Positions 18,836 through 19,450 of a stretch of DNA of 44,051 nucleotides are shown one piece after another (position 1 is the first letter of the stretch; each line of letters opens with the position of its first letter). Under the pieces are notes generated by a model. It did no database searches, was not told the DNA's origin, and was given only the letters and a program-made list of their open reading frames with translations. A program made the position numbers and the translations under genes. The DNA comes from Escherichia phage Rao1. The DNA lies in the sequence record PQ221054. One strand, given 5' to 3'.

Positions 18836-18856
18836 AGGCCCCGAGAGGGGCCAAAA
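18836..18856. terminator. Bidirectional terminator between tail gene L and the convergent Rha-family gene
   Basis: AAAAAA-GGCCCC-GAGA-GGGGCC-AAAATT, flanked by A-runs and T-runs. Confidence 0.7.
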
Positions 18857-19399
18857 TTACCATCCAAGAGTTAACTGTGCTTCCTTGTAAAGGTTCTCCA
18901 TTTCTTCTTTCCGCTGCTTCTTGACCCTCTTCCACTCAGATAGTGTCTTTCCGCAACTGCTAGCAATCTCAACCTCTGACTTTAACGTTCCGATTAACTC
19001 ATTGCATTTCTGCATTACTGATTTATTTTCTTCTTTATACTCCTCTTTAAGAATTCGCTCCATTTCGTTAAAAGCATTAATGTAAGCTTCCTTCCACTTT
19101 GCTGCCTCCTTTCCGGTAAAGCCCATTGCTAGGAATGAGAAACCATCACGTGTAATGTCATAGCAATCTAACTTCTTGTTTTGCTTGGAAATATAAGATG
19201 AGGGCCGAAAATTAGGCTCTCTAAATTCTTCGCTACAATCAAGTCCTCGAATAGCATCAAGCACGTGCTTGTGCGACTTACCAAACTTTTCTGAAACATC
19301 CTTTGATGTGACTGTAATGCGACCATCTTTGCCTAAAGATACTAAATCGTTCATAATATACCTACCTGGTGAGTTGATTATTTGTTTATGGAGATTCAA
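18857..19399 (-). CDS. Rha-family phage regulatory protein (antirepressor-like)
   Basis: N-terminus MNDLVSLGKDGRITVTSKDVSEKFGKSHKHVLDAIR resembles the Rha signature (FGKRHDNVLR-type); opposite strand inside the tail gene block. Confidence 0.65.
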   Translation of the reverse strand: MNLHKQIINSPGRYIMNDLVSLGKDGRITVTSKDVSEKFGKSHKHVLDAIRGLDCSEEFREPNFRPSSYISKQNKKLDCYDITRDGFSFLAMGFTGKEAAKWKEAYINAFNEMERILKEEYKEENKSVMQKCNELIGTLKSEVEIASSCGKTLSEWKRVKKQRKEEMENLYKEAQLTLGW

Positions 19400-19450
19400 A
19401 TATAAAACTCCTAATAGGATTTGTCAAATCTTAAAATCATAGAGGTGAAG

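Follow-up and report, generated by a model that had tools for sequence, protein, structure and literature searches.

The tail genes of Escherichia phage Rao1 form a collinear block on the plus strand, M-L-K-I-J, which is interrupted between L and K by one gene on the minus strand. This arrangement raises the question of what the interrupting gene encodes, how it came to lie among tail genes, and whether it is transcribed and terminated on its own account. The analysis covers a stretch of 44,051 nucleotides (sequence record PQ221054), referred to below as the window.

The Tail Module around the Interrupting Gene

The flanking genes were assigned by Pfam matches, and all of them lie on the plus strand. 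Gene M (17687..18037) is of the lambda type. Tail tip gene L (18077..18832) matches Phage_tail_L (4.8e-44), in agreement with the annotation of phages ZL19 and EC3a. Tail tip gene K (19451..20209) contains Prok-JAB and NLPC_P60 domains, and its start was taken from the alignment with EC3a and the annotation of ZL19. Tail genes I (20190..20762) and J (21350..24706) follow, separated by an HNH endonuclease gene on the same strand (20820..21308; HNH_3, PHROG 99) with a GC content of about 39%. This homing endonuclease gene is a second insertion in the tail-tip block; EC3a lacks it and has about 50 bp between I and J. A terminator-like hairpin (21313..21335), called on both strands, follows it just upstream of the J start. 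Phage IME253 has the I-J HNH gene plus another HNH gene between the tape-measure gene and M.

A plus-strand intrinsic terminator is situated between M and L at 18041..18059 (AAGCCCC-TATGC-GGGGCTT followed by TTTTATT), at a site that is also annotated as a terminator in EC3a. Its position implies that the tail-tip genes L-K-I-J are controlled by attenuation or read-through. Directly after J, a plus-strand ORF of 123 amino acids (24748..25119) has no Pfam or PHROG match, and the sole match of the ORF at 25116..25913 is PHROG 4062, which has no known function.

The Interrupting Gene Encodes a Rha-family Protein

The gene, rha, occupies 18857..19354 on the minus strand and encodes a protein of 165 amino acids with Pfam, NCBIfam, and PHROG matches. 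The first-pass annotation had claimed a Rha-type gene on the minus strand amid the collinear tail genes and had named a Pfam Phage_pRha domain search as the check. That search gave an E value of 1.3e-31 and 109.4 bits against a cut-off of 29.9 (PF09669), with the alignment spanning profile positions 1-91 of 91. NCBIfam TIGR02681 (phage_pRha) scored 92.4 bits (cut-off 45.95), and the best PHROG was 518, "Rha-like transcriptional regulator" (4e-57). By profile, the protein is a genuine Rha-family member (Pfam PF09669/TIGR02681), and the claim stands, both for the family and for the orientation relative to the flanks.

The Phage_pRha domain covers residues 15-100 at the N terminus, and a helical ORF11CD3 domain covers residues 112-163 at the C terminus (E 1.5e-8), where it is the sole Pfam match. 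The start codon is the ATG at 19354, preceded by the ribosome-binding site (RBS) AGGTAGG (19361-19367). This start is kept in all relatives and is the one used by GenBank records. A longer, TTG-started ORF of 180 amino acids (from 19399) was rejected, as the TTG falls within the -10 hexamer of the promoter described below, and it is the ATG with its RBS that is conserved.

AlphaFold2 modeled the full-length protein with a mean pLDDT of 81 and the N-domain alone with a mean pLDDT of 90. The N-domain has the order beta-alpha-alpha-alpha-beta-beta-alpha, followed by a long helix, and is predicted to be a winged-helix-like DNA-binding module. The C terminus was modeled as a helical hairpin, at lower confidence than the N-domain, and this ORF11CD3 hairpin probably serves in oligomerization or partner binding. 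A sequence search of solved structures with the Rha protein gave no meaningful match. Rha, Bro-N, and AntA have been viewed as interchangeable putative DNA-binding or regulatory N-domains (PMC9043618, PMC10111431). The N-domain model is compatible with that view without proving it.

Other identities were considered for the protein. No nuclease domain (HNH, GIY-YIG, LAGLIDADG, and similar) was found with Pfam or PHROG, and Foldseek returned no significant nuclease or recombinase fold, the best being a homing endonuclease with an E value of 0.97. A homing endonuclease was therefore rejected; the neighboring ORF at 20820..21308, by contrast, does match HNH_3. A defense-system component was ruled out by the absence of a match at E <= 0.01 between the PADLOC-DB models and either of the two Rha proteins of the window. 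Literature searches on Drexlerviridae Rha, ORF11CD3, IME253, ZL19, and phiA2-1 gave no account of rha and no experiment with it.

The concept of a Bro network of two-domain phage regulators reportedly goes back to Iyer et al. in 2002. The Rao1 protein resembles members of this network, such as AriS of Listeria phage phi10403S (PMC9043618), in joining an interchangeable N-domain (Rha, Bro-N, or AntA) to a differing C-terminal module. In AriS-like proteins it is the ANT/KilAC module that carries the trans activity, and SOS inhibition has been mapped to KilAC (PMC9043618). The Pfam search found neither an ANT/KilAC nor a P22 AR C-terminal domain in the Rao1 protein. Unlike AriS, its C-terminal module is ORF11CD3, and an SOS-inhibiting activity cannot be assumed.

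These comparisons bear on the proposal that the protein is a strict antirepressor, which would inactivate a repressor protein of a prophage, satellite, or host rather than bind DNA and would thereby alter prophage-mediated exclusion or wake competitors. Secondary PHROG matches do carry anti-repressor or Ant labels (phrog_373, 3e-28; phrog_63, 2e-17), but such labels are annotation transfers, and the best PHROG is the Rha-like transcriptional regulator family. Trans-acting antirepressors with cross-talk between prophages are documented (PMC3121763), and both Rha-family genes of the window lie outside the core replication and structural sets. The module that carries trans activity in AriS-like proteins is nevertheless replaced here by ORF11CD3, and we consider a strict antirepressor unlikely.

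rha Lies in a 618-bp Insertion at a Hot Spot between L and K

Over 2.7 kb around rha, the window is 99.9% identical to Escherichia phage ZL19 and 93% identical to vB_EcoS-IME253 and phiA2-1, all of which are Drexlerviridae of the subfamily Braunvirinae. In these near-identical public genomes the gene was already known, being annotated as "Rha family regulatory protein" or "Rha protein." New here are the precise limits of the inserted block, the conservation of its promoter and terminator, the one-way nature of the terminator, and the locked position at an insertion hot spot. An IMG/VR scan gave IME253 itself as the only close relative, and the informative relatives came from a large protein collection.

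The closest genome over the first 25 kb of the window is CY1_Cui-2023 (95.8%, first 20.7 kb), whereas L-rha-K is 99.9% identical to ZL19. On account of these differing affinities the window is read as a mosaic coliphage of the Drexlerviridae/Braunvirinae. The rha DNA is also identical to that of IME253, whereas the tape-measure proteins of the two phages are only 71% identical. T1-like phages have a virulent lifestyle. In keeping with a virulent phage, neither an integrase nor a CI-type repressor was found when the large ORFs of the window and the IME253 annotation were examined.

The whole inserted cassette extends from the L stop codon to the K start codon (18833..19450, with rha on the minus strand) and measures 618 bp. 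The corresponding distance from the L stop to the K ATG is 10 bp in EC3a (Guelphvirus) and in 43 Veterinaerplatzvirus-type records, and the alignments of dozens of relatives break into two pieces that leave out rha and cover about 77% of the query. The GC content of the cassette is 38.8%, compared with 44.1% for L, 44.5% for K, and 43.7% for the window. The K RBS, GAGGTG (19443..19448), falls inside the inserted block. A probe for the junction, in which 400 bp of L were fused to 400 bp of K, matched 756 records, and nearly all of those sampled were contiguous across L/K; the great majority of Drexlerviridae thus lack any insert at this point. Among cultured phages, this rha is confined to three (four records). 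Because most relatives are without it, rha is dispensable for virion assembly and structure.

The same junction has received other genes. It holds a 69-amino acid ORF without a family match in CY1, a 105-amino acid ORF in AugustePiccard, and a split HNH-AP2 homing endonuclease in Shigella phage Sf12 (locus L005, 1971..2448), and these three inserts all lie on the tail-gene strand. An HNH-motif protein is also annotated under the junction-probe match in XT34, from an annotation listing that gives no exact position. On this evidence L/K is a hot spot for insertions in general. In Sf12, the genes annotated as "HNH endonuclease" and "putative transcription factor" are halves of one PHROG 99 HNH-AP2 endonuclease, a state attributable to frameshift or decay.

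The Position of rha Is Locked in Diverged Phages

A search of the large protein collection revealed rha homologues at 81-85% and 61-62% identity. Six homologue clusters were looked up, yielding contigs L007-L012 and L033-L037. In every fetched contig rha lies between L and K on the opposite strand, and all 8 diverged homologue contexts examined (61-100% amino acid identity) have the identical L/K site and orientation. In contig L007 the proteins are identical to those of the window at 67% for L, 54% for K, 50% for I, 45% for M, and 43% for the tape measure, but at 84% for Rha. In contig L011 the values are 65% for L, 56% for K, 49% for I, 35% for M, 44% for the tape measure, and 61% for Rha. 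The Rha of L011 has diverged to the same degree as its flanks, which suggests descent together with L and K, whereas that of L007 is far closer than its flanks, which indicates lateral movement of the cassette between phage backbones. The nearest cultured relatives of L011 (TH27, P818, p111, and others; 82-88% DNA identity) do not have the cassette. From these comparisons, the cassette appears not as a one-off recent insertion but as a position- and orientation-locked module common to diverged Drexlerviridae. Downstream of J, contigs L007, L010, and L011 carry a DUF6453 gene on the opposite strand and a phage lipoprotein gene.

Could the cassette be a selfish mobile element that spreads among co-infecting T1-like phages without benefit, like the neighboring homing endonuclease genes? 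Its distribution among close relatives is patchy, the excess identity of the L007 gene over its flanks implies lateral transfer, and HNH genes lie at the L/K junction in Sf12 and between I and J in the window, with a further HNH-motif protein listed under the match in XT34. Set against this, neither a domain nor a fold of a nuclease or recombinase was found in the Rha protein, the exchange is simply explained by homologous recombination in the conserved flanking genes L and K, and the L011 gene tracks its neighbors as in vertical descent. A selfish cassette is highly improbable.

The coding sequence has dN/dS values of 0.04-0.2 relative to its relatives, with synonymous sites saturated or nearly so in most pairs. 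By this measure the Rha protein is under strong purifying selection.

rha Has Its Own Promoter and a Conserved Leader

A sigma-70-type promoter for rha lies on the minus strand at 19399..19427, 45 nt upstream of the rha ATG, and consists of a -35 hexamer TTGACA (19427..19422), a 17-nt spacer, and a -10 hexamer TATATT (19404..19399). It agrees with the consensus at 11 of 12 positions and is the unique best match on both strands of the 44-kb window. About one such match is expected by chance in the window, however, and the score by itself therefore proves nothing. Among the 8 diverged relatives the -35 TTGACA is invariant, the spacer is fixed at 17 nt, and the -10 hexamer reads TAnATT in 7 of the 8 (TGTATT in L007). 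The 5' leader (19355..19398, minus strand) contains, in the alignment of the 8 relatives, a conserved block ATTTGAATCTCCA..ACAAA and the RBS AGGTAGG (19361..19367).

Motifs that might mark an operator or a regulon were searched for in the window. Neither the dyad TCCTATTAGGA in the promoter spacer nor the leader block ATTTGAATCTCCA recurs there above chance; an operator or regulon motif was rejected, and no target can be proposed from them. The IHF consensus WATCAANNNNTTR has 4 sites in the window, which is the chance level, and 0 in the cassette, although the motif is weak evidence either way. A known noncoding RNA embedded near rha was rejected, as Rfam gave nothing credible over 18600..19700.

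A candidate outward promoter facing K lies on the plus strand at 19329..19357 (TTGCCT-17-CATAAT) and overlaps the rha start codon. It is weak and hypothetical, agreeing with the consensus at 9 of 12 positions. The -35 TTG and the CATAAT are kept in 8 of 8 relatives despite differing residues at the site (L-G-K-D versus V-N-N-E), but this retention is confounded by coding constraint. K, which lies downstream of the insert, may regain transcription through this site.

The Hairpin between rha and L Is Read as a One-way Terminator in the Window

The rha intrinsic terminator (18827..18852, minus strand) consists of a stem-loop at 18837..18852 followed by a T-run at 18831..18836, which overlaps the L stop codon. 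The stem-loop has the sequence GGCCCC-TCTC-GGGGCC, and its fold energy is -14.8 kcal/mol (z-score -3.9 against shuffled sequences) on the plus strand and -18.3 kcal/mol (z-score -3.3) on the minus strand. A terminator scan calls the hairpin on the minus strand only, with the tail TTTTTTATGA. The minus-strand tail reads TTTTTTAT, with a TTTTTT run after the stem, whereas the plus-strand tail AAAATTAC contains 2 T in 8 nucleotides, and the plus strand after the stem reads AAAATTACC, without a U-tract.

A bidirectional intrinsic terminator is taken to have a GC-rich hairpin with an upstream A-tract and a downstream U-tract on both strands, a combination that the 18837..18852 hairpin does not have in the window. 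The first-pass annotation had described a strong bidirectional hairpin separating rha from L. The hairpin itself is real and stable relative to shuffled sequences, but its bidirectionality has to be given up for want of a U-tract on the plus strand. Because of the plus-strand tail AAAATTAC, the hairpin in the window is read as a canonical terminator for rha alone and not as a bidirectional insulator. A one-way hairpin also fits the need for read-through from L to K into the tail-tip genes K-I-J.

The hairpin and the rha-sense T-run are present in 8 of 8 relatives, and the outer stem pair alternates between G-C and A-T on both sides, a compensatory change. In four of these relatives (L007, L010, L011, and L033) the L-sense side of the hairpin is also T-rich, and there the hairpin may be bidirectional, though not in the window.

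With its terminator defined, the cassette can be compared with a moron. The features of a moron that can be examined in sequence are all present: insertion between genes that are adjacent in relatives, an own promoter, an own terminator, and deviant composition (GC 38.8% versus 43.7%). The moron-like organization proposed earlier is thereby well supported. At this level the comparisons show rha to be an autonomous, conserved, and selected transcription unit, and the cassette is probably an ordinary accessory moron in a virulent T1-like coliphage.

The cassette might instead act chiefly in cis, its antisense promoter and hairpin tuning the tail-tip genes through transcriptional interference or partial L/K termination, with the ORF secondary; K may also receive a new promoter and RBS from the insert. 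None of the contexts examined departs from the L/K site or from the antisense orientation, the rha -35 hexamer is 24 nt from the K start codon, the K RBS lies within the insert, and the weak K-facing promoter-like site is retained. The L-sense hairpin tail is T-rich in the four relatives named above, and the operon already has a plus-strand terminator between M and L. On the other hand, the dN/dS values show selection on the rha product itself, by far most Drexlerviridae have no L/K insert, and little termination is expected from the plus-strand tail in the window. A chiefly cis-acting cassette is very unlikely.

Related Genes in Early Regions Point to a Possible Origin

The closest homologues outside the Drexlerviridae, with the same two domains (161-166 amino acids, 53-58% identity), are found in early regions. 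One of these (L013) belongs to an E. coli prophage with an integrase, where it lies in the nin/replication region. In three uncultured phages (L015, L038, and L039) the homologue is the first gene of a rightward early operon and directly precedes replication genes (Lin1244_N or IstB-like, DnaB, NinB, and NinG). These four genes share the two-domain architecture and the length of the Rao1 gene and immediately follow a divergent promoter region of about 100 bp. Unlike the window rha, they are co-transcribed with DnaB, NinB, and NinG, lack a terminator of their own, and lie outside any structural module.

The promoter region of L038 and L039 shares the stretch TAGGAGTnTTATATTT, which comprises part of the spacer and the -10 hexamer, with the window rha promoter. 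This shared stretch is a hint of joint capture and suggests that rha was captured together with an early promoter. The early-region comparison further hints at a terminator peculiar to the Drexlerviridae cassette. Upstream of the homologue in L038 (4897..5001), L039, and L015 is a TTGCAA-17-TATATT promoter containing the shared TAGGAGTnTTATATTT, and in these three phages the homologue heads the replication operon, in the place of cro/cII in lambdoid phages.

Proposed Mode of Action and Comparison with Known Systems

Taken as an accessory moron, the cassette would work as follows. Host RNA polymerase would fire the rha promoter upon DNA entry, and Rha would be made early, independently of the late tail operon. 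The terminator would stop the antisense rha transcription before L. Late transcription from L to K would meet the rha promoter head-on and silence it. Rha itself would most likely be a DNA-binding regulator of phage early genes, of host genes, or of genes of a co-resident prophage.

The moron concept is said to come from the work of Juhala, Hendrix, and colleagues on the lambdoid phages HK97 and HK022. Like lambdoid morons, the cassette is an extra gene of differing composition between genes that adjoin in relatives, with its own promoter and factor-independent terminator, and it sits in the tail-gene region, a favored location. Unlike them, it resides in a virulent phage that has no prophage state for its expression, it is antisense to the surrounding operon, and it carries a gene for a regulator-type protein, not for a host-fitness or exclusion factor.

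The rha genes of phi80 and P22 (orf201) are the founding members of Pfam PF09669/TIGR02681. The Rao1 protein has the same N-terminal domain family, with 34.5% identity to P22 Rha over residues 10-148, and its gene is likewise embedded among late genes, outside the immunity region. As cited in PMC4936722, the phi80 and P22 genes are co-oriented in the late operon of temperate phages, regulated by IHF, and defined by a growth-inhibition phenotype in IHF-deficient hosts. The Rao1 gene differs in being antisense and in having a sigma-70 promoter of its own, and no IHF consensus site lies near it.

A further reading is that the locked cassette either couples Rha to the timing or dosage of K-I-J or provides Rha as an early effector on prophages, satellites, or repressor-based exclusion. 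In the coupling version, the early antisense promoter, the hairpin, and the outward K-facing promoter would link Rha to K-I-J. Either version, if true, would explain why the cassette is fixed at L/K while synonymous sites are saturated. We regard this reading as distinctly unlikely. In other respects the cassette, as an accessory moron, exemplifies what is already established about morons, about mosaicism, and about tail-gene junctions as insertion hot spots. Phages that are otherwise 90% identical differ naturally in having or lacking this 618-bp unit, which makes it a compact test case for the role of Rha/Bro-network proteins in a virulent phage.

A Second Rha-family Gene and the Occurrence of Rha in Virulent Phages

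The window contains a second Rha-family gene on the minus strand at 26297..26968, encoding 223 amino acids. It had been listed in the first-pass annotation and is real but weaker, scoring 35.4 bits against the Pfam cut-off of 29.9; its best PHROG is 8235, "anti-repressor" (1.3e-84). BLASTP between the two Rha proteins found only an 18-residue motif in common (E 0.004), and close paralogy was rejected on that ground.

The second protein occurs at an identity of at least 80% in about 57 Braunvirinae records, related N-domains are found in Jerseyvirus and Webervirus, and ICP1 matches the first Rha protein. In view of these occurrences, Rha/Bro-network proteins are routine in virulent phages, and their presence is only mildly notable. 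The earlier remark that a Rha gene in an apparently virulent genome is notable fits the genome in that no integrase or CI-type repressor was found among its large ORFs, but was overstated, as Rha-like domains are common in virulent siphophages.

The distinction has a practical side. T1-like phages are frequent laboratory and fermentation contaminants as well as phage therapy candidates, and ZL19 serves as a test phage in defense-system studies. In the screening of therapeutic phages, the labels "Rha" and "antirepressor" are sometimes taken as signs of temperateness. Because it is an accessory cassette in a phage without integrase or repressor, rha is not to be read as such a sign here.

The counterpart of the second Rha gene in CY1 (OQ357823.1, 5018..5359) is annotated "KilA protein" and matches only residues 109-222 (85%). 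This suggests an N-terminal swap of Rha for KilA-N on a shared C-terminal half, in the manner of Bro-network shuffling.
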